In this document: piece by piece, positions 1,767 to 33,437 of the stretch
Numbering within the stretch: position 1 is the first letter of the stretch
Layout of the letters: every line of letters begins with the position of its first letter
Assembly (NCBI GenBank): GCA_051942245.1
Contig: JAVECL010000019.1
Location: forward strand, 62,001 to 102,228
DNA length: 40,228 bases
Source of the DNA: Trypethelium eluteriae
Taxonomy: Eukaryota
Reading direction: 5' to 3'
Program-made: the position numbers and the translations under genes
Notes under the pieces: model-generated
Seen by the model: the letters and a program-made list of their open reading frames with translations, nothing else
What the model was told of the DNA's origin: nothing
The model's database searches: none

Positions 1767-4047
1767 TTTGAATTGGAACGAAGGTTGGGCCTCGTGCTGG
1801 TGATGGAGGCAGTGAAGAGAGGTAAGGCGTAACTGATGACTCGCACAGAATATTGTCTAGGGGAATCCAAGAAGATTCACTCAAGAGAGAGAACACTCAA
1901 ACGAATCGTATGCACACTGGTAGTGTGTATATATTGACATGACGTGCATGGGCCATTCAGTCATGGCAATCCGGGTCGGTGTGGCACTTCGCGGCGGTCG
2001 CTCCTGCCAGCAGGGCCTCTTGTCACCGTCGGAGATGCTGGAATTGTCCATTGCGTGTGTGCATGCATGCCTCGACCACCTGCGGCGCGTTATGGCGAGG
2101 GGCACTCAGGTGTTTTGGTGAGTGACGAACGAGGACTAGAGTGGATGAGGAAAACGGTCAACGGAGTCGGCTCCAGATTCAGCGCCAAGTATCCAGAGCG
2201 GCTGAAGACCCTTCCACGTTTGCCACGCTGCTTCCTCAATGCAGTCCGCTCACAGGCAGGCCGATTTATTGCTGAAGATTTTTTCATGAGTGTCTCGGAC
2301 GAAAAGACCTGCTTGGATTTTGTCGAGTGTTCGGCGAGATAGTCATGGTAACGATGCCCTTAAATACCTTATGGCTTGTTTGTAGGCACCAGTTCATCAT
2401 CATGGAGCATGATCAAAGTACAGAAAGGCTGCCTTCCCACTCGGCACAGCATTCGAGCAGGTGGCTTCTGATAATGTAGGATACCGATTTCGGCATAAAG
2501 CTCTGCTGAGGCACTTTCCATAGACTGCGTATCGATATCCAAGCTTTCTGAGAGGATTTCCACGATCCTTTCCGCGATTGAGCAAGGAGTTTGGCGTGAG
2601 ATGCGGCGCGAACCAACGACATCATACTTAGCCCCGCAATCAGCAGATATTCAAAATTTAATCAGCGCTTAGTCTACTCCAGTGGTGCCAGTGCTCTCGT
2701 CACTGCGATGACGCCATGTCTATCCGTTCGGTCCTGTCCATGTTGTGGCCCCTTTTCCCAATTCACATCGGCTCCATTCAGGGACCTGTACTCTACTTCG
2801 CTTGTACGTTTTATGCGCGGCCGGGGTAAGGAAGGAGGGACTTCGATTTTCATTGCCACGATAACTTGTGATCCTAGTCTCAGTTTCTATTTGGGTATCC
2901 AGCCCCGGGGGAGATCCATCAACAAATTACAACGGTCCCGAACCAAGTCACATATTGCGTCTCATAGAGGTCATGATCAGTCTTTTAGCTATTGATTGTT
3001 CGTAGACTATGAAGCGACGCTACTTTGAGCAAAGGTTAGAGCTAGTAAGAACCGCAGGAGATGATCCGAAAAGGAGTGTTGAAGAGAACAGAGGCAGTTG
3101 AACACGAAGCCACTCGATGGTTTTCAGGTCAATGCATATTAGTATACATCAGTTGGCTCATAGTATTGCATTCTTGCCTAACAGACCTTTCGTGTTTTGA
3201 GAGAGCAAAGAATGTCAATGCGAGTCAACGCGAGTCAAGCAGTGCGAGGTATTAGGCTGCAAGGCATCCTCAAAACATGGCAGGATTCTTCTCCAACAGA
3301 AAAGAGTCAGCATGTCTCGAACGCTCTTGCCGAACGCTTCACGCCAAGCCAAGAACCGGTGCACCAGGGGATACACTAGAAATCGTCGGCAGGGCATACA
3401 AGACCTCAAATGGCTATCTCTGGTTTGAACATTTCACCGTCTATAGGGGCACTCCTAGGTTGTACAGAATTGGAATGAAATATTAGGGAGATCTTCGATC
3501 TTACGGCTACTGAGAGGTTTTCCAACTCTACAACAGGTTTTACTGCGAGACCTCCCAAACTTATACCTCTAGGTCTCAAAACTTCGGTTAAACCAATACT
3601 CTAGTACCGACATTCTTTGTTTGAGCAGCGTCGCTCGAAGTAAGGCATTTCTAGGAGTGGAGGCAGAAGGATGAAGTTAAGCCACATTCCCCACGCTAGA
3701 GCACAAGCCCCTCGATGGTTGGAAGAAGACACGGAAGACTAACAGAAACGTGCGACGATCCAAGCCTCGTTCTTCTTATCACGAGGCCGATCGCATCGCA
3801 CCGCCTTCCGTAAATGACTATTTTCATTATGCTTTTTTAAGTCAGCCTTGCCGTTCAATAGGATAGCCTGAGCTCAGCCCCGTCATTCGCTCACTACAAA
3901 GAAATTTAAATGGGTAATCGCGACACATCACAGACTTAAAAACAACGTCCTCAACTTTCATAAAGGTTAATATAACAGCACCATTTCTCCACTTTCACAA
4001 TCGCTACCTCTACCCTCATACTTCGGACTTCACTTTAATACATTGCA

Positions 4048-5787
4048 ATGTCGGGAAAACAACCCGTCTCAGCGGAGCCATCGCTCGCCCGCACACTGGT
4101 TCCTAAGGAAGACTTAAATTCAGCGGACGACGATTCTGATGCATTTGATGGCACCGATGACTGGACCATTCCCGATCGTGTAGCCAAGCAGGATTATTTT
4201 GTATTCATCGACCATCGGCAGATCCATTCACTTCTTGATGCATTCTTACGACTGGATCATAATATGCAGGGCGGCAAGATTGGACACCTCATCTCCCGCA
4301 AAAGGTCGCATGCCTGGGGAGGAAGGGAGATAAATGTGGGACAGCTAGGTATACTCTCATATAAAGGACGGCCCATTGTGGTGACAAAGCCTGGCAACTA
4401 CTGGAACTGGAGCTGGACGCATTCTTGGTTAGGGCCCAATCTTGACCTGACGGCTGTGAATGAGGTCAACGGTCTCACATTTGCACAAGTCGGCCAGTCG
4501 GAAGCTATGGTTTGTCTCGATCCTCAGAATCAAGTCTTCATCGTGCGCAATGGAGGATTTGCAGCGTATGGCTCGAATGGTACCTACAAAGTCGTCGAGA
4601 TCGTGGACACCCTCAATCTGGGAGAAGAGTACGCAATCAGAGAATCGGACACCGACAATGACGGAACAACTCGTGTTCTGGGCTACAAGAAGGAAATCAG
4701 GCACAGAGTATCTGTCGGTAGTAATCAGAAACACGTCACCATTGCTACCTTCTTCAATGTTCCAGCACAGAATACCGTCGTCATACAGAATGCTGGTCAC
4801 CTGAAGGCCTTCGGCGCTGGACAACACGTCATTACCAACCCCCGATGTACGTTCCGCGGCTTCTTCACATTTGGAGAGCGCCAAAAAGCGTTCCGCACCC
4901 AGCCCGCCTACACGCTCGAAGGCGTTCCCGTAGTCCTGCACGTCAATCTCCGCTACCGCGTGGTCAACGCCATCGAACTCACGAAATCCTACGAATCCGC
5001 CTTCCAAGCGCTGAAGAACCCCGCGCAATCCGCCGTCAACGCCGTCGTCTCGCGCCTCTCGTACCAGCAATTCATGCGGGCGAAGAACATCGGCGGCGAC
5101 ATCCCAGACGTCGAGCACATGAGCTGGCTCGAAGCGTTCAAGTCGGAATGCCTGCGGTCGCTGGCAGAGCACGCGCTGGAATACGGGGTGCAGGTGCTGG
5201 CATTCGACGTGCTGGACCGACGCCTCGAGGGCAAGCTCGGCGACGACCTCGAAGACCAGGCGGAGTCGGTGCTCAAGAACCAGATGCAGGCGACGCAGAT
5301 CTCGCTGCAGAACAAGATCAAGACGGAGACGGAGCGCGGCAGGCTCGAGGTCGCGAATGTGCGCGCGCAGCAGGTCGAGGTCGATGCCAATGCCGATTAC
5401 TTCCGGACGTCCAAGGAGGCAGATGCGAAGTATTATCAGCAGCTCAAGGAGGCGGATGCGGAGGCGGAGAAGTTGAGGAGGATTGCGCAGGCGCAGGCGG
5501 ATTCGAATAAGATTGAGACGGAGCAGAAGGTGCGCGCTACGGAGCAGCTGGCGGAGGCGGAGCAGAAGCGGATTATGCTTGAGGGCCAGGGATATGCGTC
5601 GGTGACGTCGCCGCATGGGCAGCGGATGCAGCTCGAGAAGGTGGAGAAAGAGAAGTTTGGGAGTCTGCCGGAGAAAGCGACCGTCTTTGTTGGTCAAGGG
5701 CAAGGCGATGCGGGAGTGACGGACGGGTACAAGTTTGCTCAAGGGATGTCGATGGGAGGCGTAGCTGCAAGAGAAAGCCGATCATAG
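4048..5787 (+). CDS. SPFH/band-7 (flotillin/vacuolin-like) protein with C-terminal coiled coil, 579 aa, intronless
   Basis: ATG in a good context (GCAATGTCG) with strong codon bias. SPFH core: AYTLEGVPVVLHVNLRYRVVNA...AQSAVNAVVSRLSY...EYGVQVLAFDVLDR. It is followed by an Ala/Glu-rich coiled coil (EADAEAEKLRRIAQAQADS...AEAEQKRIMLEGQGYA). Confidence 0.85.
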   Translation: MSGKQPVSAEPSLARTLVPKEDLNSADDDSDAFDGTDDWTIPDRVAKQDYFVFIDHRQIHSLLDAFLRLDHNMQGGKIGHLISRKRSHAWGGREINVGQLGILSYKGRPIVVTKPGNYWNWSWTHSWLGPNLDLTAVNEVNGLTFAQVGQSEAMVCLDPQNQVFIVRNGGFAAYGSNGTYKVVEIVDTLNLGEEYAIRESDTDNDGTTRVLGYKKEIRHRVSVGSNQKHVTIATFFNVPAQNTVVIQNAGHLKAFGAGQHVITNPRCTFRGFFTFGERQKAFRTQPAYTLEGVPVVLHVNLRYRVVNAIELTKSYESAFQALKNPAQSAVNAVVSRLSYQQFMRAKNIGGDIPDVEHMSWLEAFKSECLRSLAEHALEYGVQVLAFDVLDRRLEGKLGDDLEDQAESVLKNQMQATQISLQNKIKTETERGRLEVANVRAQQVEVDANADYFRTSKEADAKYYQQLKEADAEAEKLRRIAQAQADSNKIETEQKVRATEQLAEAEQKRIMLEGQGYASVTSPHGQRMQLEKVEKEKFGSLPEKATVFVGQGQGDAGVTDGYKFAQGMSMGGVAARESRS

Positions 5788-5987: not shown

Positions 5988-8294
5988 TTACAGATCCACA
6001 AATTCGCCCGGGATCGCCTCCTTATTCCTCCAACTCTCGAGGTACTTAAGAACCTTCTTCGACATCGTCTCCGTGTCATACCCAAAGTGCTTATAAATGT
6101 ACTTTCCCGGAAGACTGTGACCAAACGTCTTCATGCAAATGCCAGCATCCGCATACCTCTCCCAACTCGTGGGCGCGTACGGCTCGATCACAACCGCCGG
6201 AACGCCCTCATGCCTTCTCAGCACATTGCGGCGGTACTCACGTGGCTGGGCCTCGAAGAGACGCTGACAAGGGAAGCTGACAACGCGAGCTCGAATGCCG
6301 TAATCGTCAGACAGATACGAAGCAACGTTCAGAGCAAGAGAGAGCTCCGCGCCCACGCCAATGAGCGTGACCTGCGGATCCGACACGTCGCGGACGATGT
6401 ACGCGCCCTTGCCCACTTTGGAACGGCGGGTGACGCCCGTCTGAGGGACGGCATGTCGGCTTGTGGAGATGATCGATGGTGTTCCCTTCGCTTTGATGGC
6501 CTCGATCCAGGCGCCGGCGACTTCCTCGCTGTCGGCTGGCCGGATGTACAGCATGTTGGGCATGGCTCGGAATAAGGCGGCGAGTTCGATCGGTTGGTGT
6601 GTCGGACCGTCTTCTCCTGCGCCGATGCTGTCGTGCGTGGCAACGTGGATGACCTGGAGATGCTGTAGGGCGCCCATCCGCACACCTGGCGCGGCGTATA
6701 TGTAGAACATGAAGAATGAACTGGTGACAGGGAGGATTGTCCGTGGGGCGTACGCAGCGAGGCCGTTGGAAATGGATGCCATCACGTGCTCACGGATACC
6801 GTAATGGATATATCGTCCCGTGTAATCGCCATCCGGTCCCGAAGTCGTCTTCAGAGAAGGCGGCTGGAAATCTATTTTTGACGGATATCCCATGTTGACC
6901 GACGGACTCAGATCTGCAGTACCCACCATAAATGATTTGATCTTATCGATGATGGGACCAAATACAAGATTGTTGGATTTGCGAGTTGGTGTGGGTGAAT
7001 CTGGAAAGCTCTGTGGAATTAATTCTTCAAAGTTCTCCGGAATTTGGCCCTCGATCCTCGCTTTGAAATCTGTTGCCACATTTGGATGTTTACTAGAGAA
7101 CTCATCCAGCACATGGTTCCACTCTTGCACCCACCTGTCACCCCGCGTAGGGATATCTTGGTAGAATTGTTTGACTTTTTCTGGAATGACGAAATGCTTT
7201 TCTTGGTCCCAACCGTACGCTTTCTTCATGTCTGCAACACTTTTCGTACCAAATGGGACACCGTGCGCGACTGCTTGGCCAGCCACCGCACTCCCTACGC
7301 CAATGATAGTTCGAACGTTAATGAATAAGGGCCTCTCCCGTGACGGATCTTTTCCCTTTGCTAGCGCCGCAACAATGGCCTCGACATCGTTGACACCATC
7401 TTCAATATCGACCACATCCCAGCCGCAGGCCCGCATCTTAGCGTTGACGTCCTCAGTATTGGTCATGTCGACACTGCCATCACATGTCACCTGGTTATTG
7501 TCATAGATAACAGTCAGGTTATTCAGCCTTAGGTGTCCTGCGTAGGAAAATGCTTCGCAACCGACCCCTTCTTGGAGGCACGCATCGCCTACCATGCACC
7601 AGGTGTGATTGGAGACCACCTCATACCCCGGCCGATTGTAGGTTGCCGCAAGGTGCTTTGTCGCCATTGCGAGGCCGACAGCATTTGCAATTCCTTGACC
7701 AAGCGGCCCTGTTGTAAGCTCAATGCCGTCGTGTTCGATCTCTGGGTGGCCAGGGCATAGGCTGTCCGGTCGTTCTGAATGATAAGATTTGAGCTGCTCC
7801 CATGTCATTGCCTTGTATCCAGTAAGGTATAAGTTGCAGTATTGAAAAAGGCAGGCATGACCTTGAGATTTGTTAGCTTGCTGTGTTCGGTGCTGAAGCC
7901 CTTTGGGCTACTTGCTGACCATTGGAAAGCACAAATCGATCTCGGTTGAACCAAGACGGATCGTTTGGAGCATACCGCATAGCATACTTCCAAAGAGCCA
8001 CTCCGATTGCTGCCATGCCGATGGCTCCCCTGAAACTCATCTCAGCTTGGTCGTAGCAACTGTTCCGTCGACTACCAACCCTGGATGGCCCATGTTGAAC
8101 TGCTCGCAGAGATCTGCAATGAGCAATCGAAAAGACTGCAATACTAATTGGATATCTTCACGACTATACTTTGCCGGTGCCGAAGGCGTAGACTCTGCTT
8201 GTAGGAGGCCATCGACCGTAGCCTTGCCATATGACGTAGAGCCGTTCGTGGTCCCATTCGGGCTCAAGCCATTCATGCTCAAAGTTTGAGCCAT
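5988..8294 (-). CDS. Transketolase-family enzyme, dihydroxyacetone synthase (formaldehyde transketolase)-like, ~732 aa, 3 exons
   Basis: Exons 8294-8080, 8029-7920 and 7861-5988 join in frame. Motifs: LIADLCEQFNMGHPGGAIG, NRDRFVLSNGHACL, LKSYHS...CPGHPE, TTGPLGQG, ThDP motif GDACLQEG...YDNN, HYGIREH, THDSIGAGEDGPTHQP. The ADLC.QF, LKSYHS and GDACLQEG variants fit the DAS-like paralog better than housekeeping TKL1. Confidence 0.93.
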
Positions 8295-8575: not shown

Positions 8576-8966
8576 TGTGAAAATATGGCGGAAAGTTTGC
8601 CGGGCGGTTCGGCATGCTTCTTTTGCTTGTGCGGAATGCCACGGCTGAGCTTCTTCTAAGAGAAGTATCGATTGGCAGTGTCTTCAATCAGAGTACTCCG
8701 TACTCACTGTCTGCTCTGCTCCTCCAGGTGAAACGATCTGTGTCAACAATGTTCATGACTGAGTGAGGGTTCGTGCTTAGGAACATTATTTTTTCCCAAG
8801 CATATCCACTATCCAGTCAGAATGTAAGAGTCGACACTCGTGTCAGGATATTCAGGATTCCATTGAAGATGCACCCTCTATAAGCCCAGCATCCAAGGCT
8901 TTGACCATCCTGGCACGCGAGCAGCACTGTCTAATACTTTTCTATCCCAACATATGACCGCGCTTC

Positions 8967-10580
8967 TCAACCACAAACACTTTTCACCATCTCTTCTGCC
9001 TTCCATATCGCTTCTTTTGGCCCAACAATCGTAACCAAGGTCCCCAGGTATAACCCTTGCCAAAATGCCATGAGCATCACACAGCCAGTCAGACTTTTGA
9101 TGTTACCCGCGGCCTTGTGCACCGCGAATTTATTCCCATCCTTCTCCTGGCCCTTGTCACTAGGGATGAGGAACTGTCGTGCTCGATACGGGTTATGCCA
9201 AATTCTTGTTCCCGGCGCTCCAAGGTTGACGGGCGGACTCCAGTCTAACTCATCTCTCACAAAAGCCGTGATTTGCGACTTCATCTCGGAGAAGACTTGT
9301 GGCACCCGGTTCGGAGAGTACGAGATGGGCAGGAGGATGATCTGAGCCTTGAAAGGTTGCCGCTCGCTAGGGGGCTCAAGTTTTCGAGCAAACTGACGGA
9401 GCTTAGTGAGAGCGGTGAAGGCCTCGTTATTGAAGCAAAGTATGTAGTCACAATCCCGAAAGTGACGTGGTTGGACGCCGCGCCCATATTTATCACCCCG
9501 TAGAAGCTTGACCAGTTTTACGAGCTCCAAAGCCTTCGATTCCTCTCCGTAAGCGCTTTCTACACAGTCCAGAGCGCGTTGAGCTCCGACCTGTCGGCGG
9601 TCGAGAGTAAAAGGCACGGCTTTGGCTTCTGTAGCGCGTCTTGTCAGATCAGACTTGAGGAGATAGCCGGCACCTTCGATGCGTTTGGTAAAATAGTTCT
9701 GGGATCCCGTTGCAGCATGTAGACGGAGATACTCAAGATGAAATTGGGCCATGGTGGCAAGAGCGCCCTGGCGAAGATCGACGCAAAGGATCGGTGCTGT
9801 CATACGCATCTTTCTGTATCGAATCTCTTTCTTGTATGGCTCCAGCACTTTCTGGGCATCGCTTGGCGTCATTCTAGTGTCAGATTTGGCCAGATCAGCT
9901 TCGATGGTTTTCCATGATTGAGGGTCATCGCTACAGGCGGCTTGGATGACTTGGTTTTTTCCATATTTTTCTAGAATTGCTTGAAGCAGTCGATCTTTTT
10001 CGCGAGCTTCTCGATCTCTCCTACGAACGTCTTCTCTCAAGGCATTAAGAATTTTCTCTTGACGGGCAAATCCAGCTTGGACATCGGCGGCATTTTGAGC
10101 ATTGGCAGCTGGTGAATTGAGGAGTAGTTGCTTCGAGTTCAGTATCTGTAAAAATTGTCCTATCTGGGCGTTGTACTCCCTGATTCTTCTCAATTTGTCA
10201 TCAATTTTGCTGGTGTATTTCAACGGCAGCCAAACAGAATCCAACAGCCAGCCGCGATCCCATTTCTCCACCACCTTTCTGGTTTCTTTAACGTCATCCT
10301 CCAAGCGACTGAGGCAGGTCTCAAGCGGATCGTGGCTGATTGATGCTCAGTAGAGGCCTTTTCGCATGGGTGTCGCAATCTCTTACAGATTATGATCCTC
10401 AGGGTGATGGGTAAAGTATGCCTTTGTCAGCGGATCCAATTCTGTCAACATGGCAATGGAAGCACTCAACACATCCGTGGTGTCTTGCGTGAGTTGAGGT
10501 GCGTTCCGGCATTTTTCCGTTACATCTACTAAGAGAGTAATTACTGTAAAAATGTCTCCTACGCCGACACCGAAAGACAT
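8967..10580 (-). CDS. Uncharacterised multidomain protein (~520 aa, 2 exons): HeLo/SesA-like N-terminal helical domain + inactive LMW-PTP-like domain + degenerate KH domain
   Basis: Exons 10580-10387 and 10335-8967, with a 51-nt intron GTAAGA...ACTGAG...CAG, in frame. The N-terminus MSFGVGVGDIFTVITLL is typical of fungal HeLo-like/SesA domains. The middle ILCVDLRQGALATMAQ...RIEGAG...RGVQPRHFRDCDYILCF...KAQIILL resembles LMW-PTP. The C-terminus RQFLIPS...NIKSLTGC...LVTIVGPKEAIWKAEEMV resembles KH. Confidence 0.8.
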
Positions 10581-11288: not shown

Positions 11289-14200
11289 TCATGCGTCGAC
11301 AAGGACGTGTTGGAGCGACAACCGAGAATGGCAATCAGTCCAGTCGAGCGACGGGGAACTTGTGCAAGAAAATGGCTGGGGAGGTATATCAAGTTTTTCG
11401 AGCTTGCTAGCCAAGTTGCAAGCGGCCAAGGGCAGACTGTATGATCGTATACCAGGAGATGGTGGATTCGAAGGTTGCGAGTCTGATAGAGATGCTTCTG
11501 AAGATGTAAGACTTGGAACCGGCGATGGGGAGCGAGACATAGACCGACGAAACGTTGTCGTTCTCGGAACTGCCGTAGGTTCGTTCGAGGACCAGGTACC
11601 ACCACCCACCGTTATGTAATGGTTTGGTTTTGCAAGTGCTTGTTCTTCGCTAGATGGCCTCTTGGCATACCCCCCATTCCTTAATACTCTTCGTTTCGTG
11701 CGAAGACGTCGCTTATTTCCGCTCACACGTGTTAGGAGTAAGGGTGCAGACGGTGCGCTACCTGGTGGTGCAACCTCCACATGGGCATCATCCATCTTCA
11801 AGCCAATTTGTTTGAACACCTCTCGGATTGGTGTGAAAAAAATGAGTCGACCGTTGAAAGCCCACAGCAGTCCAAGAAGATGGTCGTCACTCTTGCCAAT
11901 AATCCAGGCTCCCGAGTCGCCTTGAACATCGTCTACCTCGATATCGTCCTGTCCACAAGGTATAATGCTCCATTCATGTGTCTTTGTCCCATCATGCTGC
12001 GTGGACGATATTGGAAATTGGTTGATCATGCCCTCGCGGTAGCCACTATTGCTTCCTATATAATAAACCATCTCACCTGGCTGAAACTCCCTACTCGCTT
12101 CGCATGACTCTCCAATCCCTTCCGGACTGTTAGCCTCGCGCTCAAAATGTTGGTGACTTAGTTCAATCCCCTTAGGATACCTAAATCTGTTCTTGCCGAG
12201 CCTTTCTTCATCGACTTCGAAGATGGCCCAATCCATGCGATGGAGTTTGACGTTGCCGTCATTCATTCGCGGATAGAAAGGGGTGGCGTGAGCATCTTCG
12301 GCCGAGCTCCTGACGAGTTTACCCAATTTGAAGTCTTCCTTCCTCCTGTTGAGATCTTCACGCCATCGTTCGTAGTGATTCACGAGGCTGAGCTGATCTC
12401 TGGGCACAGTTTCTGCCAAGGCTGACAAATTCACTTCTTCTTCAACCGGCGCTACCTCCGAATTTTCCATCTCCAAATTGAAAGTTCGCAGTCGTTCGTC
12501 AAAAACTTGCCCTAACTGTTTGATGTCGTATAGGGCCGGGGAGTAGACGCTATCGTCAGGAGTCTTGGGGCCAGAGCAATCTATGCATGCGTAAGCCTCG
12601 TCAATGAAATGCCCCACGGTAAGCATGAAAGGTCGTCCCCCAACTAGAATATATCCTCCCAAAGTAGCAAAGAAATGTTCACAGTGACTCGTTCCAATGG
12701 ACGCACTCATTCCTGGTCTCCTATAGTATCGTGATTGGTGAGGGACGATCACTTCGCCAGGAGCGTCGTCGGTAAATGAACCCCCAACAAGAGTCTTCAT
12801 TGTTCCATTATAGAAATAGATTGGGAGCTGGGGCCGATGATTCTCAGAGCATATATTTTTGATGCTTTTTCGAATGATGCTTCTAGTGACATCCGCTTGG
12901 GGCGCAGACTGGAACCGAATGACAGGTACAGGGTCATTATGGGCATCTTTCTGCCTTATCAGTGCTGCTGTGAAAGAATCATTGATCCCAGCACGTCGGG
13001 AGATATCAGACAGCAGGGGATCGATGAATTTCTCCCAAGTTATGACTGCCTCGCTGTCCTCAGAGCGATCAATGGAAAGGATCTCAACCCAATCGGGAGG
13101 ATTTTTCTTCCGTTGTTTCGGGCGAAATTTTCGACCAATTTTCTGGTAGATCCTAGGTCCAGTATCATCCGTTTTAGATTTAACAGAAGAGAGAAGAGAT
13201 CTCACGGGCGCGAGCAGGGGTTCCAACAGCGCTGTCGCTCTCTTTAAGTCATCAAAGGACTGAGCTCCACGTAGATGTATAGCGCCTTTCGTTCGGATGA
13301 AGACGGCAGAGACCTTAAGCTTCCTCAGCTCGCCCATTATTTTTGGCAGCTCTGTCGCTAAAATCAGCATTGTCCTCTCGTAAACCAAGAATTTACGTAC
13401 CAATATGCCCTAACAGGCTACAGATATCTCCTACTCTAATAGAGTCAATCAATGTCGTCTCAAATTGCCACATTTGTGGCTGATTAATGGGCAAAGATGT
13501 GCTCTGTCGAGCCGTGACAATGGCGTTGCGAACATCTCCCAACTCTGCAGCCTGAGAAGACATGAGTGTTGTAGAGCCTGTACTGTCGTCACAATGTGTT
13601 GGTGTGGAGGGTTCATGAAAGACTTCTTTGCGTCGCTTTGATGATGATTCTGATCCATTGTCATTAGGATGTTTCTTGTGATGAGAGAAAACGTCTCGTT
13701 CGTCGCTTGTTTCCTGTGATGGGTAAAGAGATTCTACATTGATGTTAGTGTTTACTCGCATGAATTATTTGCGGATGGTGGTTCCGGAAATGCACTGACC
13801 ATGTTTGGCTTCATCCCTTGTGAACTTCCAAGAGTCATTGGGATGGCTCGTATGCTTCTTCGAGACGTGCCTCTGTAGATCGATAGCTGAAGTAAAAAAC
13901 ACGCCACCGTTTCCCCCAAAGCCACAAGAAGGATTCTGGCATTGGAATTTCCCGTAAAACGATAAATCCGACACACAGTGAATCGACTTGAAATGCCTCT
14001 TAATCTTTTCCTCCCGCCTGAACATTTTGTGCTTGCCTTTTATCATGCATAATCCACAATGATAGCCGGTTTCGAATGGACCGTGGCATTTCTCATGCTC
14101 GTCTCGCTCTATAGAAGTGGGAAAAGTCTGCTTATTGCAATTTTTGTGACCGCATTGGTGTTGCTCAACTAGATGACGTTTTTGGTCTGATAGGCGGCGA

Positions 14201-17254: not shown

Positions 17255-17862
17255 AAACCATAGAGTAGAGTAGCGATCCCCCATCCCATTATCTCTCCAT
17301 CTATGAACGATTCCCTAGGACAGATCCTTCGAGCCTGGCAGCGGTCATCATGTTGTCGATTGCTTCTACGTCTTCAACAGGTCTTGAAGTCAGAGAATGC
17401 ATGGTCTTCTACTTTATAATTACTACCTTCCGGGGCTTCTGGGCACAGGATAAGCTACACGTCACTGCAAGGATCAAGGCATCAAATATCTATGATTGAT
17501 GACATAAACTGAAACCTTAGTTCTCTCTTCTTAGCACGGGATTACTTCACGTGCACTCTTGGCTAAGGTAGGGTACCTAAGTGCTGTCGTAGGCTGAGCC
17601 AACCCACTTTTTGTAGTTGGTCTTACAGACGAGACGGTGTCCTCTAATACAATCTTACAAAATGATGGAATCTCATTTTACGGTGTATTTTGACGTCGTA
17701 TTCCGCAAGCATCGCCCGACTTTGCCATGCCGAGGAGACAATCTTATAGTTCCGTAGATAATGCCGCGGGCTTATGGTTCTCGCCAATATAGTTACGCTG
17801 AAACTCCGAATCTAAAGTTCCGAGTTGAATTATATACAACCAAGAGCACGATTTTCTACAAG

Positions 17863-19761
17863 ATGGCCAAGCATGAAAACTCGTTGGTTTTTCTCCATCC
17901 GCATCTTGAATCTCGACACAAGTCTTCCCGTCCCTCCTGTCGTTCCCATCGTGGCTGTCCTTCCCGAGCCCGCTGTCTCCGACGACGACATCGTCCCCCA
18001 GCGAGTCAAGCACTCCTCCCGACGCATGTCCAGGATCCGATCTCTTCTCCTCCACCGCACGCGCCTCGACGACGAAGTCTGCAACCAGAATTACACCGGC
18101 AGCGGCACCGACGACGACCCCTACATTGTCGACTACCTACACCACGACCGCCAAGACGCCATGAATTTCTCCAAGCAGCGAAAATGGGCCATTACCATTC
18201 TCCAATCGCTGTCCATGTTCGCAGTGACCTTCGCCAGCTCCGTATACGCCAGCGGCATCGAAGGCGTGATGCAGCGCTTCGACGTGTCCGCTGAGGTAGC
18301 GACGCTGGGCTTGTCGCTCTTCGTGTTGGGCTTCGCGCTGGGACCGCTGATCTGGGCGCCGCTGTCGGAGGTGTACGGGCGCAGGTCCATCTTTGTGATC
18401 TCGTACACGGCATACACGGCGTTCAGCGTGGCGGCGGCGTGCGCGCCTAACATCACGGCGTTGCTGGTTCTTCGCTTCTTGGCGAGCGCGTTTGGGTCGT
18501 CGTCGATGACGAATGCTGGGGGCGTCATTGCAGACATGTTCAGCAATATGGAGCGCGGACTGGCGACGGGATTGTTTGCTACGGCTCCCTTTCTGGGACC
18601 TGCATTTGGTATGTGGTGGATGTTCTTCTTCCATGCTGTCATTTTTGTCATTGTTGCCCTTGTACACTTGCAGATTCTTATCTTTTTTTTTTCAGGGCCC
18701 GTTGCTGGTGGTTTTCTTGGCGAGACCCAGGGCTGGCGCTGGATTCTCGGTTTGGTTGCCATACTGGGCGGTGTGACCTGGATCGTCACGACGCTGGTCA
18801 CTCGCGAAACATACGCGCCGTTCATTCTGCGATGTCGAGCCAAAGCCCTCTCCCGGATGACAGGAAGCGTATATATGTCCCGACTCGATGCAGGACAGCC
18901 GCCCAAGACGCTTTCACAGGAGCTCTCGATCGCTTTCACGCGCCCCTTGATTCTTTTGTTCAGCGAACCCATTGTCTTGCTGACGTCGCTGTACATCTCT
19001 ATCATCTACGGCACACTGTACATGTTCTTTGCCGGGTTTCCCATCGTCTTTCAAGTTACTCGAGGCTGGAGCCAGGGCACCGCCGGACTTCCGTTTGTCG
19101 GCGTCGCCATTGGCGTCTGTCTTGCCACGCTGGCGGCCGGCGTGGACAACAAGCGCTACGTGCGCCTGTGCGCGACGGCTGAGGCAGAAGGATGCGCAGT
19201 TGAGCCAGAAGCCAGACTGGGTGCGGCTATGGCAGGCGCAATTGTCCTTCCAATTGGTCTGTTCCTGTTTGCGTGGACGACGTATCCGTCGGTGCACTGG
19301 ATCGTGCCCATTATCGGCGCCATGCTTTTCTCGTGTGGACTTGTCATGGTCTTCATCTCGCTAGTGAGCTATCTTGTCGACTCTTGTACGGTTTTGATCC
19401 TTGCTTCGTGATCCTCTGCAACAATGCACATGCTCACCTGTGTACAGATGTCGTCTATGCTGCTTCTGTGATGGCGGTTAACTCGGTGCTTCGGTCCTTG
19501 TTCGCCACCGGCTTTCCGCTGTTTACCACCCAAATGTACGAGAAACTCGGGAATCAATGGGCGAGCTCCATTCCGGCGTTCCTAGTGCTTGGATGCCTGC
19601 CTTTTCCGTTCCTGTTCCATAAGTATGGTCCGCAGATACGCTCCAAGTGCAAGTATGCTTCCGAAGCAGCAAAGGTGCTGGAGATGATGCGTCGTCGGCA
19701 CGTCGTCGTGATTGGAGGTGAGCCAAATGGGCCAGAGAAGGAGGCTGAACAGGTTGTTTAG
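17863..19761 (+). CDS. MFS multidrug transporter, DHA1 family (12 TM)
   Basis: Motifs: [48 protein letters not shown] (motif A), [43 protein letters not shown]. Introns at 18609-18695 and 19386-19447. The start is uncertain (ATG 17863 with a short intron, or ATG 17873). Confidence 0.93.
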
Positions 19762-29323: not shown

Positions 29324-32106
29324 TCATCTGCTTCTATCGTACTCGCCTCGCTCAAGATCGGGCTCTTCGTCAGTGCTCTGCATGGGTAGTGCCGCGCTTG
29401 GAGAGTCGTTCCTTGTATGAGCCGCCCGCTCCTGAGCATCCTGGACATCCTCATCCACGACATGATCATCATGGTATTGGTCATGTGATTGATGAGATTG
29501 TGACGAGGATGTGCGTTGGAGAGATCTGACGACGTCTCCCTTACATATAGGACAAGTGCGCCGTCGAGTTGTCAGCCATGGTGTTCTACAAATTTCATTA
29601 GCCTGGTCACTACAAAATTACTGCAGAAAGCCTGTAAAAGGATGGGAGAGACTCACATGCAGCCTTCGTGGAACTCGTGCCCGCAAGGCAGGCTCATGAC
29701 TCGTGACACGCCGTCAACGTATTCCTCTAAGCATACTACGCATTCCCTTTGCTTGCCTCCATATTTTCTCCTCCATTCAGCCAGACCCGCATCTCGCTTT
29801 TCTTGCTGTGCATAACTACCTTCTCCTGGCTCCTCCTGATCGCCATGACTCTCCTCAGCCGCTATGGCCCTTGCCAACGTCGGTGGCGGAATCGAGCTCG
29901 CCGTCCTCGCCCTAGGTCTCGATCTTGAACTCCTGTCATTCCCATTCTGCAATAGTGGCGTGGTTGAAGTTGCAGTAACGGGGGTCGCGATAGGGCTGCC
30001 ACTGGAGGTGGTGGAACTTGGCAGTGTCTGATAAGTCCGCACAGGCAGCCTCTCTACTACCGACTTCGGTGCTCGCCATCTTCGTCGACGTATGCGGCTG
30101 CGAAGAAGTAAGAGCGCGTATACTACCGTGAGCGTAACAAGAGGAGACACAACGAGGACCAGAAGGGTATCGAAAAACGGGGAGGAAGACATAGACGTTG
30201 GCGTAAGTGTGACCCATAGACCTTCATGAGACTCCACTCCAATCGTCTTAGGTTGAGCGGAGTTCAAAACATTGGATGATGCCGGGTGCGGTCGCGTAGA
30301 TTTCGTGTTCTGAGAATTTAATGAATCGTAATGGTCAATAGTGTCCTCAACATCATGACTCCAAGCATGCCGCCAGCCTCTACTCGTTCCTTCACTGAAT
30401 TTGCCCTGCCTTGCTTCTTCGTTGGAGAACGGAAGAACGTGCGATGACTTTCTGGATGTAGCAGGATCACCAGACTGATCGTCTTGCGGTCCATACTCAC
30501 CACTGCCGGGGGTGATACTGCCCCCCTTTAACTGGTGAGACACAGTGCTGCTAGTACTGGAAACATGAGTGCCAGCTGGTCGACCCTTAGAGCTGCTGGT
30601 CGATGTGGGGAAGCCTTCCGTTTCGATGTTTGCGCCTACCAGGTCTGGGTCACGCCAATCATGGACACCGATCACGAAGCTATCGCCAGTCGAAGTCCTT
30701 TCCTGACCTGATGTAGACGTAGTAAGTGGTACTTTGGCTTTGGCTGTGCTTGCAGTCGTGTATGTTGTTTTTGATGATGTAGTAGTCAGCGTGAGCTCGG
30801 CTTCTTTCCATTCTTCAAGAACCCAATCAACCTGTCCGCTACTCGGAGGTCGTCTCGAATCTCGCCGTTGAGATTTACCTGTCCCAGATACTAGTCCCAA
30901 CCCAGATACCAGGGAGCGGATGAATCCGGCGGCCTTCTCCTCAGTTCGTGCAGACTTGACACGTTCAGAGTTGGCGGGCTTAGATGACCCTCGGATCACC
31001 GTAGACTTAGGTGCCAACGCAGTCGATGCAGACTTCGTGGTGAAAACCGGTCCTGCTTTGTCCGCTTGACCCTCACCACCGGCACTGTCCTTTTTATCAC
31101 CAGCGAACTTCTTGTTGGGCCCTGTCTTCCCAGGCAAAGTAGCGTCATCTCCAATGGGTACGCCATCGATATTACCTCCTGAGGGTATCAGTCCCGCCAG
31201 CAGATGAGCCGTCATGCGAGATGTGAAGAGAGCCGGAATGGTAATGTTAGATGTGTCACCCCGTGCGTACATTGTGACAAGAGGACCCCCACGAACGTCA
31301 TCTCCAACAATCAAAGCGGTGCCACCTCGTCGTTGCACCCATTTGACTTTTTCGAGGAATCCGCAGCCACCTCTGCTAAGCAACACTACGTTGCCATCTA
31401 TTTCTGCGCCTTCCTGCAATGACTGAATATCAGCATGAGCGCCTGGCTTCACACCCACTCTCCTATTCGGAGCATTCGGTTTTGTAATCGCAGTGTCTGA
31501 CAAAGGTTGGTGAAGATAATCATCTGTTCCGTCATCTTCGGCATTTGTGAGTGACGTATCCTCTCCCGTATCGCCATCCTCCATGGACACATCTTCAGCT
31601 CTTTTGCTCCGACGTTGAGCCTCCACAGGAGAAGCATTGTCACCAGTCTCGACCTTGCCAATCGTCTTCCTCCACGAAAATTGGCCTGATGTCTGTGAGT
31701 TGTGGCTGCTCTTCTGATCTGTTCCTGTCCATCCCGGCACATCACTGCACCCCAGCTCTCCTTCTGCTCCTGTGATGATGCCTCCGCGGCTGAGGCTGTC
31801 GTCGGAGAAGCCACTGCCAATCCAGAGTTGACCGCTCAATCCTACAGACGGTAGGCTCGGGCCGAATGCTGCAGGTCGGGCAAGGAAAAAGGTCGAGTTA
31901 TCATCGGTCAGACTTATGATGGCAGAAGGCGGAAACAAGGAGGAAGGAGTATGGAACGAGAAGAAGGAATGAATCGCGGAATCTCTTTTGGCGGCGGTCG
32001 GCCCTTCAGGTTCTGAAGCACGAAATGCGGTATAAAGGAGGATCGTAATCGCTAAAATGCAGGATGAGAGGGAGAGGACGAGACGTAAAGGACGCATAAA
32101 CGGCAT
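29324..32106 (-). CDS. PA-domain, transmembrane, RING-H2 E3 ubiquitin ligase (RNF13/RMR-like)
   Basis: Hydrophobic N-terminus; FFLARPAAFGP; PA motif VVLLSRGGCGFLEKVKWVQRRGGTALIVGD; TM FFDTLLVLVVSPLVTLTVVYALLLL; RING CVVCLEEY..LPCGHEFHEGC|ITPWL..CPIC across a GTGAGT...GCTAAT...TAG intron. Stop at 29326-29324. Confidence 0.92.
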
Positions 32107-33437
32107 CTTCGCGATCCGCAAAGCTCGAAGCCTTTTAACCAATTATTACCAAATATAGCGGCGCAACGGAATGCAAATCCAGTGATAGGGGATATCGAAG
32201 AGGCTAGGGCATGGTGAAGGTAAATCTGCCTGATTTCGAGGCGTGGCGGATCTGGGGTATAGAAAAACGCACAGCGTTGCGGGGCACGGCGTAGAGATTC
32301 AAGTGGCGAAGCGGCGAGAATATCTTTCTTTTCGTTTCAAGAGCGTGACCTCGAGGAGTCCCTTCGAGCAATGATGTAGAAGTTCTGACATCACGGGGTG
32401 AAGTATCATCCACACGAAGTCGTAGTGGCAGTGATGATATAGATGACCTTGGAGCCTCATGTGCGGGCATGCCACCCTGCGTCCGAGGCACGTGATAGAT
32501 ACTTTGTGACCAAAATCCCCGTCCTTTTTCATCTCGAAGGCAGCGACATACACTTGTCACTTGCAAACATTTACGCGACTCAATATGAACTAGGTAATCT
32601 GTTGACACCACAAGTAACACGAATTTGGTACGAAGCAATAGTGATGTATCGTCAACCAGGCTGATATCGGTGGCGATTACATCGAATGGCGCGTGTTGCC
32701 GCCCAGAAACACGCACAATCCTGACCAGACGGGGTCGTTGAGAGACAAGACTATACATGGCGGACCGTATATCTCCTCAAAACCCAAGTTCTAGTATTCA
32801 TGTTGTTTTTCTACCTAGCATTAAATATGCGGCACAAAAAACCACTGCACATCATCGATTGCGACAGCGAAGACCCCGGACGACGTCATTGTGGGGGTGT
32901 AGCATCAGCACTGACGGCAGCCACATGAGACGAAAAGCAATCAGCCACAACTTCTGCTCAGCAATCAGCATGCAGTTTCGCAGCATGAACGGCAGATCGA
33001 CGCTAGGAAGTTTCCCGACAGGAAGGAACGGCAGGCTCGCTTGCTGTCGATCTCGATATGTCTTGCCCATCTCTCCAGACACGCGTTCTGGATGGCAGCT
33101 TCGAGCTCCACCGCTGCCGTCATGATGCAAAAAAAAACCTAGCCTCTTACCCATTCCAAACCACCACTTTCTCCATCGCAAGGTGCCCCTTCCAATCAGT
33201 TTGCCATCCTGGAAGTTGGCATTCCCATCCGCCTCTTCCCATAATCTTCCTCGTCCCAAAAGCCTACTTTTGACTTGCAACCCATTTGACTTCTTTGCTT
33301 TACTACCTGTGTCCTGTGTCTTGTGTCCTGTGTTTTCCATTCTTCTTTTTCTACAATCCCTTGTTTTCTTAAGACTACCAATTACCTACCTAACTCTGCA
33401 ATCTCGGCTGGGCCACAGTACCATCAACATCTCCAAG

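Follow-up and report, generated by a model that had tools for sequence, protein, structure and literature searches.

MLKL, the executioner of necroptosis in animals, joins a four-helix bundle to a brace and a pseudokinase, and is the standard example of how a pseudoenzyme controls a four-helix bundle that kills by attacking membranes. Fungi are already known to carry this bundle on NOD-like receptors (NLRs), on amyloid-controlled effectors, and in fusions with kinases or pseudokinases. One source groups the HeLo, HELL, SesA, and Goodbye domains with the MLKL four-helix bundle as homologues, and describes kinase or pseudokinase domains fused to some HELL domains (PMC12881547); a second states that HeLo/HELL activity needs an N-terminal helix with transmembrane propensity (PMC10197012). 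Here we describe a gene of Trypethelium eluteriae whose predicted product carries an MLKL_N/SesA-like four-helix bundle, a helical brace, a protein tyrosine phosphatase fold of the low-molecular-weight class (LMW-PTP) without its catalytic residues, and a degenerate KH domain. The gene lies on the minus strand of a window of 40,228 nucleotides (nt), the whole stretch of DNA that was analyzed (GenBank assembly GCA_051942245.1, contig JAVECL010000019.1, positions 62,001 to 102,228 of the forward strand).

The likeness to MLKL lies in the order of the parts: the N-terminal bundle belongs to the same superfamily (as indicated by Pfam MLKL_N in family members and by hhalign), a helical brace follows it, and the C-terminal pseudoenzyme has lost its catalytic residues. 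The two differ in that the dead enzyme of the window protein has an LMW-PTP fold followed by a KH domain, whereas that of MLKL has a protein-kinase fold; in addition, the window protein has no known RIPK3-like activator, carries GxGxG in its first helix, and matches MLKL structurally at only Z 9.3. HET-S, HELLP, and the SesA/HeLo-like N-termini of NLRs share with it the killer-domain class, the hydrophobic first helix, and the host group (Pezizomycotina), but unlike the HeLo/HELL effectors and NLRs, the window protein has neither a C-terminal amyloid (prion-forming) motif nor a NACHT/NB-ARC domain. Four-helix-bundle effectors with a regulatory C-terminus are of a known kind; what is new is the combination of the bundle with a dead LMW-PTP and a degenerate KH domain. 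The initial annotation of this DNA, made from the sequence alone, knew of no precedent for this combination; likewise, no paper combining the three domains was found in the literature searched, and the main texts of two papers on fungal NLR effectors and cell death contain 0 occurrences of “phosphatase” or “KH domain” (PMC12881547; PMC9815663). We have high confidence in the architecture, by which we mean the gene and its family, the presence of all three folds, the lost catalytic residues, and a rigid LMW-PTP and KH unit.

Gene structure

The gene and the domains of its product are as follows, with residues numbered along the spliced product.

10580-8967, minus strand: two-exon gene with a product of 520 amino acids (aa; 64 + 1 + 455)
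10387..10580, minus strand: exon 1, 64 codons plus 2 bases (MSFGVGVGDIFTVITLLVDV...HPEDHN), encoding helix 1 (hydrophobic, GxGxG) and helix 2 of the bundle
10336..10386, minus strand: predicted intron of 51 nt, GTAAGA donor, CAG acceptor, phase 2
8967..10335, minus strand: exon 2, 455 codons (P0001), ending with TGA at 8969-8967
10110..10580, minus strand (spans the intron): four-helix bundle, MLKL_N/SesA-like, residues 1-140
9801..10109, minus strand: helical brace, residues 141-243, with conserved AACSDDPQSWKTIEADL...SDAQKVLEPYKKEI motifs
9240..9800, minus strand: LMW-PTP-fold domain, residues 244-430
9753..9782, minus strand: degenerate P-loop V-D-L-R-Q-G-A-L-A-T, with Cys to Asp, Asn to Gln, and Arg to Leu by alignment
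8970..9188, minus strand: KH type I fold, residues 448-520; an insertion (SDKGQEKDGNKFAVHKAAGNIKS) takes the place of GXXG

The ATG at 10580 opens the peptide MSFGVGVGDIF, and an in-frame TAA sits 24 nt 5' of it. Exon 2 encodes SWKTIEADL and EPYKKEI, then ILCVDLRQGALATMAQ (starting at 9791), followed by RIEGAG, RGVQPRHFRDCDYILCF, and KAQIILL, and lastly RQFLIPS...VTIVGPKEAIWKAEEMVKSVCG, which terminates at TGA 8969-8967. All the strings quoted in the initial annotation, together with their open reading frame (ORF), lie on the minus strand where it had placed them. The ORF is not a chance one, because single-sequence searches return five close homologues (E 4e-170 to 6e-102) and 47 cluster representatives at E ≤ 1e-3, 16 of them at E ≤ 1e-10.

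The orthologue is found in Trypethelium subeluteriae (P0008 residues 941-1460); it has the same 520-aa length and the same exon junction, and is 82% identical to the window product over exon 1 and 82% over exon 2. Splicing of the 51-nt intron restores the frame and gives the length and junction of P0008, which supports the predicted intron; exon 1 is regarded as part of the gene because it is conserved in this orthologue and joined at the same point. The P0008 segment was used in place of an assembled spliced product. Each of P0013, P0030, P0052, P0063, P0064, P0072, and P0075 likewise carries an M-x-F-G-x-G-V-G-D N-terminus ahead of this C-terminal module.

Among named relatives, the closest is a Viridothelium virens hypothetical protein of 288 aa (P0005), with 96% identity over the shared part. 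Its public model starts (MTPSDAQ) within the brace and, ahead of the KH region, splices out of frame into an alternative tail that corresponds to a different frame of the window (ORF 8878-9063; region 8878-9150, minus strand); it therefore has neither the four-helix bundle nor the KH fold. Since this model hides both the killer and the KH domains, annotation-based surveys would miss the architecture. Its different start and 3' end, and the prediction of the splice from sequence alone, would fit a gene in which exon 1 lies outside the transcript and the product is either brace, pseudo-phosphatase, and KH domain, or the shorter 288-aa protein. However, the exon-1 peptide is conserved in T. subeluteriae, distant members also have this N-terminal motif in front of the C-terminal module, and the 3' end of P0005 stands in for sequence whose unspliced reading is conserved in all other homologues and folds as KH (block-mean predicted local distance difference test score, pLDDT, 81-97 in the window model). 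A gene-model artefact of this type is highly improbable.

A phosphatase fold without catalytic residues

The window's own residues 8970-9821 were modeled by AlphaFold2 (AF2) with a pLDDT of 93.1 and a predicted template-modeling score (pTM) of 0.90. Structural comparison of this model by VIA gives Z 15.1 against VcLMWPTP-2, Primo-1, and yeast LTP1 (root-mean-square deviation, rmsd, 2.4-2.6 Å; 138-143 residues aligned), and over both models (orthologue and window) LMW-PTPs are the top matches, with Z 15.1-15.5 and rmsd 2.3-2.6 Å. By Foldseek, the top 21 rows among the matches listed for the window model are LMW-PTPs (rank 1, E 3.4e-6, probability 1.00). Searched against PDB sequences, a profile of the family reaches mouse Acp1 (E 6e-5) and has 15 LMW-PTP matches at E ≤ 1e-3. 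The LMW-PTP and KH folds that the initial annotation had expected are thus recovered, the first by VIA, Foldseek, and family profile, the second (below) by VIA and family profile.

Single sequences give less. The Pfam family LMWPc (PF01451) remains below its gathering cut-off of 23.2 bits, both for P0001 (12.6 bits, E 0.17) and for the best relative, P0022 (18.4 bits); a Pfam search with P0001 also gives a phage family at E 0.1, and P0001 against PDB sequences gives only a chance hit (E 1.4). The fold of human ACP1, yeast Ltp1, Drosophila Primo-1, and LMW-type ArsC is present in its entirety (Z 15.1, with 138-143 of 153-159 residues aligned), and sequence likeness is found around RGVQPRHFRDCDYILCF...KAQIILL (LMWPc positions 65-98). 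In contrast to these enzymes, the window protein has D-L-R-Q-G-A-L-A in place of C-x5-R-S, lacks the DPYY loop, matches Pfam only below cut-off, and is fused to two other domains.

The P-loop consensus of LMW-PTPs is V-C-x-G-N-x-C-R-S. Alignment confirms the earlier reading of the window's P-loop, in which Asp stands for the catalytic Cys and Leu for the Arg. The loop before the last helix, where the DPYY acid loop had been reported missing, reads LLPISYSPNRVPQ when sequence and model secondary structure are taken together; it contains no Asp, and no conserved Asp column is evident there in the family. With Cys, Arg, and acid loop all absent, the domain is, as judged from these residues, a pseudo-phosphatase in the window protein. 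This label does not extend unchanged to the wider family. At the Cys position, Asp is found in 29 of 33 aligned sequences, so that the loss of the nucleophile is general; at the Asn position, however, Asn is kept in 23 of 34, and at the Arg position Arg is kept in 22 of 36, while the residue after this position is Ser in 26 of 36. A Leu in place of the Arg is seen only in the window's clade and in P0013. Most relatives thus read D-x2-N-x2-R-S, and it looks as though their P-loop has lost the nucleophile only, with the Arg lost as well in the window's clade. Because this pattern persists in the wider family, the ancestral module may still bind phosphate or another anion.

Could the Asp itself act as nucleophile or metal ligand, so that the domain is a real hydrolase of an atypical kind? 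Its conservation, and the retention of all other P-loop features in the D-x2-N-x2-R-S relatives, would agree with such activity. Yet the window's clade has Leu for Arg and Gln for Asn, and no conserved Asp is evident in the general-acid loop; we know of no Asp-based LMW-PTP, nor did the parts of the literature covered by our search suggest one. An active enzyme is accordingly very unlikely.

Phosphatase folds with a substituted nucleophile serve as binding or regulatory modules in the STYX pseudophosphatases, which have a dual-specificity fold and a Cys-to-Gly or Cys-to-Ser change; the window protein resembles these in principle, but has an LMW-PTP fold and a Cys-to-Asp change. A natural LMW-PTP-fold pseudophosphatase family with a conserved Cys-to-Asp substitution is not described in the literature searched.

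A degenerate KH domain predicted to pack on the phosphatase fold

The C-terminal region has the beta-alpha-alpha-beta-beta-alpha topology of KH type I, and shares its fold with KH domains such as hnRNP K KH3, N4BP1, and KHNYN. By VIA, the window model matches the KH domains of N4BP1 (Z 9.0, rmsd 1.9 Å, 64 residues) and KHNYN (Z 8.9), with rmsd 1.8-1.9 Å over 62-64 residues, and both models match those of N4BP1, KHNYN, FBP, and Nova at Z 8-9.8 and rmsd 1.6-2.1 Å. The family profile finds hnRNP K KH3 at E 6.5e-7 among PDB sequences, with 10 KH sequences at E ≤ 1e-3. The Pfam KH_1 (PF00013) cut-off of 21.5 bits is passed by 11 of the 45 homologues scanned (maximum 43.6 bits); P0001 itself has no KH_1 hit at E ≤ 1.

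The KH-like unit with a disrupted GxxG loop proposed in the initial annotation is borne out by this fold match and by an insertion, DKGQEKDGNKFAVHKAAGN, which stands between helices 1 and 2 in place of GXXG. As to its retention among homologues, canonical GXXG is present in about 3 of 49 aligned sequences (P0024, P0038, and P0050) and degenerate in most relatives. Compared with KH type I domains, the window's clade has a longer insertion for GXXG, and its KH domain is predicted to pack rigidly on the phosphatase fold; the high pTM of the model suggests that the two folds form one rigid unit.

The N-terminal bundle and brace

Structural comparison of the N-terminal domain rests on the AF2 model of the whole orthologue (pLDDT 85.4). 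In this model, bundle helices span residues 7-25, 32-58, 63-91, and 100-138, and brace helices span residues 144-189, 191-199, 203-216, and 222-240. The evidence for the class of the bundle comes chiefly from profiles. An N-terminal profile of 19 sequences, with P0030 left out, aligns by hhalign with a group annotated as MLKL_N/SesA (probability 98.6%, E 7.2e-16, 120 columns), and of the 32 proteins hit by the N-terminal profile, 18 have precomputed annotations of PF22215 and/or PF17107. P0030 is itself a full-length member with an MxFGxGVGD start; it gives Pfam MLKL_N at 26.4 bits (E 5.4e-6, cut-off 27) and a weak SesA match. A scan at E ≤ 10 of 15 relatives that bear the N-terminus gives scattered weak Pfam hits, among which only MLKL_N and SesA (both in P0030) are recurrent. 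In the ESM Atlas, the first 200 residues neighbor fungal clusters (score 0.93) in which PigL_N (PF17111) or SesA is annotated on 11-21% of members.

The Kyte-Doolittle mean of residues 2-20 is 1.73, which indicates an N-terminal helix with transmembrane propensity, and GxGxG is present in it. Of 31 N-termini tested, 23 share this glycine pattern, and the same N-terminal motif is seen in P0013, P0030, P0052, and 27 further proteins. The N-terminal domain is best called MLKL_N/SesA-type; the HeLo-like label of the initial annotation holds in the broad sense.

A candidate regulated executioner

The anatomy of the protein, in which a killer bundle, a brace, and a pseudoenzyme follow one another, parallels that of MLKL, and for this reason we favor, tentatively and at about an even chance or slightly less, an MLKL-like executioner in which the pseudo-phosphatase and KH unit is the regulatory switch. 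The product would be a cytosolic 520-aa protein consisting of the bundle, a brace of ~100 residues, and a compact pseudo-LMW-PTP packed on the degenerate KH domain. At rest, the brace together with the pseudo-phosphatase/KH unit would keep the bundle inactive. A trigger acting on the C-terminal unit, be it proteolysis, a partner protein, or a ligand bound to what is left of the P-loop, would free the bundle, which would then oligomerize and insert its first helix into a membrane, with regulated cell death or membrane damage as the outcome. Autoinhibition, trigger, membrane attack, and an immune role are what we infer. The initial annotation had likewise proposed an NLR-independent immune or cell-death protein, with the dead folds as decoy sensors or autoinhibitory modules. 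That most relatives retain N-x2-R-S points to a phosphate-bearing ligand as the ancestral signal, from which the window's clade would be further removed. A docking prediction of orthologue residues 1-140 against 141-520 gave a score of 0.23 (mark, 0.34) in a run made without controls and without alignments, and speaks neither for nor against autoinhibition.

Several observations weigh against such an executioner. Four-helix-bundle domains of the MLKL_N/SesA class are not lethal in every case. No Pfam hit is obtained on the N-terminus of the window protein or its orthologue (P0001, P0002, P0008, and window:9800-10334), and the structural matches by VIA include IncA (Z 12.1), Rx-CC (Z 10.2), Sw-5b (Z 9.3), and MLKL (4btf, Z 9.3), values compatible with the class but not diagnostic of it, because a common arrangement of helices is enough for bundles to reach them. 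Neither an amyloid motif nor an adjacent NLR is present in the family, so that the known fungal activation routes are absent. Furthermore, the D-x2-N-x2-R-S pattern of the wider family indicates that the C-terminal unit may have a ligand-binding or enzymatic job of its own and not be a mere switch.

A different role would be that of a non-lethal adaptor: the N-terminus would dock on a membrane or partner, or oligomerize, and the C-terminal unit would read a phospho-ligand or nucleic acid in signaling or RNA metabolism, with no cell death involved. KH domains and LMW-PTP-like pseudoenzymes do occur in RNA-handling machines; structural matches include Krr1 and pre-ribosome KH domains, as well as an LMW-PTP-like subunit of the trypanosome mitochondrial small-subunit (mt-SSU) assemblosome (6sga_FW, Z 10.8). 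The N-x2-R-S of most P-loops in the family, the canonical GXXG of a few members, and the housekeeping neighborhood of the gene (transketolase, SPFH, and MFS) would also suit an adaptor. Against this role, the N-terminal domain is profile-homologous to MLKL_N/SesA-annotated proteins, its hydrophobic, glycine-rich first helix is typical of the killer class, and the degenerate GXXG of the window protein and most members is contrary to classical nucleic-acid binding. We consider an adaptor of this kind rather unlikely.

If the protein is indeed a regulated executioner, a dead tyrosine-phosphatase fold with a degenerate KH domain as regulator would be an independent evolutionary solution to the control problem solved in MLKL by a pseudokinase. 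It would also offer an experimental way into regulated cell death among lichen-forming fungi, the pathways of which are, to our knowledge, little studied. A bolder and rather doubtful form of the executioner reading would make the whole family a “pseudophosphatase MLKL,” perhaps specific to lichen fungi, in which a phosphate-reading D-x2-N-x2-R-S pseudo-LMW-PTP with its KH domain replaces the pseudokinase switch and releases the bundle on sensing. What the module senses would then be a nucleotide, a protein in phosphorylated form, or the end of a nucleic acid, coming for example from the photobiont, a mycovirus, or a lichenicolous parasite. The window's clade, in which the Arg is also lost, would represent a derived form whose trigger has changed.

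Family and distribution

The family has no name and comprises ~75 cluster representatives, 28 proteins having been added by the N-terminus profile search. Among the 27 N-terminal relatives P0053-P0079, four are full-length and match the C-terminal-module profile at E 4e-83 to 2e-90; the other 23 end soon after VVDSYNEG. Many sequences (among P0053-P0079, P0017, P0021, P0036, P0040, and P0044) have an insertion or end inside the P-loop, after V-D-x-x-N-x-G. The interruption fits a conserved intron that gene callers read through; in the window's clade, this stretch of the P-loop is uninterrupted.

Seven source organisms are named, in four classes: Viridothelium and Trypethelium (Dothideomycetes); Chaenotheca (Coniocybomycetes); Peltula (Lichinomycetes); and Caloplaca, a Lecanoromycetidae sp., and Imshaugia (Lecanoromycetes). 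The lineages of four of these were looked up. We take all seven to be lichen-forming ascomycetes; restriction of the family to lichen-forming fungi is a lead that concerns the named members only, and may reflect sampling.

In a 50-sequence alignment, the sole invariant column is R384 of P0001 (window 9183-9185, minus strand), an Arg located where the KH fold begins and leading the motif RARQ (RTRQ in most relatives); this residue may contact the former active site. Nearly invariant (≥90%) are E201, R204, E270, G286, F292, C300, F301, W365, P368, and G438. A distant relative of the C-terminal module, with 22% identity, is found at the edge of a 3.4-kb metagenome contig (L001 4-768).

Genomic neighborhood

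The upstream neighbor on the same strand is a protease gene.

11289..13403, minus strand: 704-aa ORF, S64/Nal1-like trypsin-fold serine protease with GDSG, ~700 bp upstream of the effector gene

This ORF matches Pfam Peptidase_S64 at E 3.4e-4, below cut-off, and neighbors fungal serine-protease and Nal1-like clusters in the ESM Atlas (0.96-0.97); it has no hit among PDB sequences. In T. subeluteriae, the automatic model P0008 (1460 aa) fuses the protease with the effector, which implies the same adjacency there. A single gene for protease and effector, as suggested by this fused model, was rejected for the window on account of the in-frame TAA upstream of ATG 10580.

The adjacency bears on the trigger of the favored executioner. 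A variant of it would have the S64/Nal1-like neighbor cleave the protein and free the bundle, the two forming a protease-activated toxin pair much like the gasdermin/protease pairs of fungi. The genes lie close together on the same strand, the arrangement recurs in T. subeluteriae, and fungal gasdermins are under protease control according to two sources (PMC12881547; PMC10197012). Both genomes are, however, from Trypetheliaceae and their proteins 82% identical, so that the synteny they share counts for little; a cleavage site was not identified; and the one distant-member locus obtained ends at a contig edge, where neighbors are unreadable. Activation by this protease is thus improbable.

No NACHT/NB-ARC, HET, or amyloid-motif gene was detected among the ORFs scanned in the window. 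The lack of an NLR domain among the 16 large ORFs scanned is compatible with the NLR independence of the protein, without being proof of it. Of these 16 ORFs, 13 have Pfam hits, all to ordinary families (transketolase, SPFH, MFS, SDR, HAD, and others). The surroundings include, at 5988-7907 (minus strand), 4039-5787 (plus strand), 17816-19411 (plus strand), and 29653-32142 (minus strand), transketolase, SPFH/Band 7, MFS transporter, and PA-RING genes.

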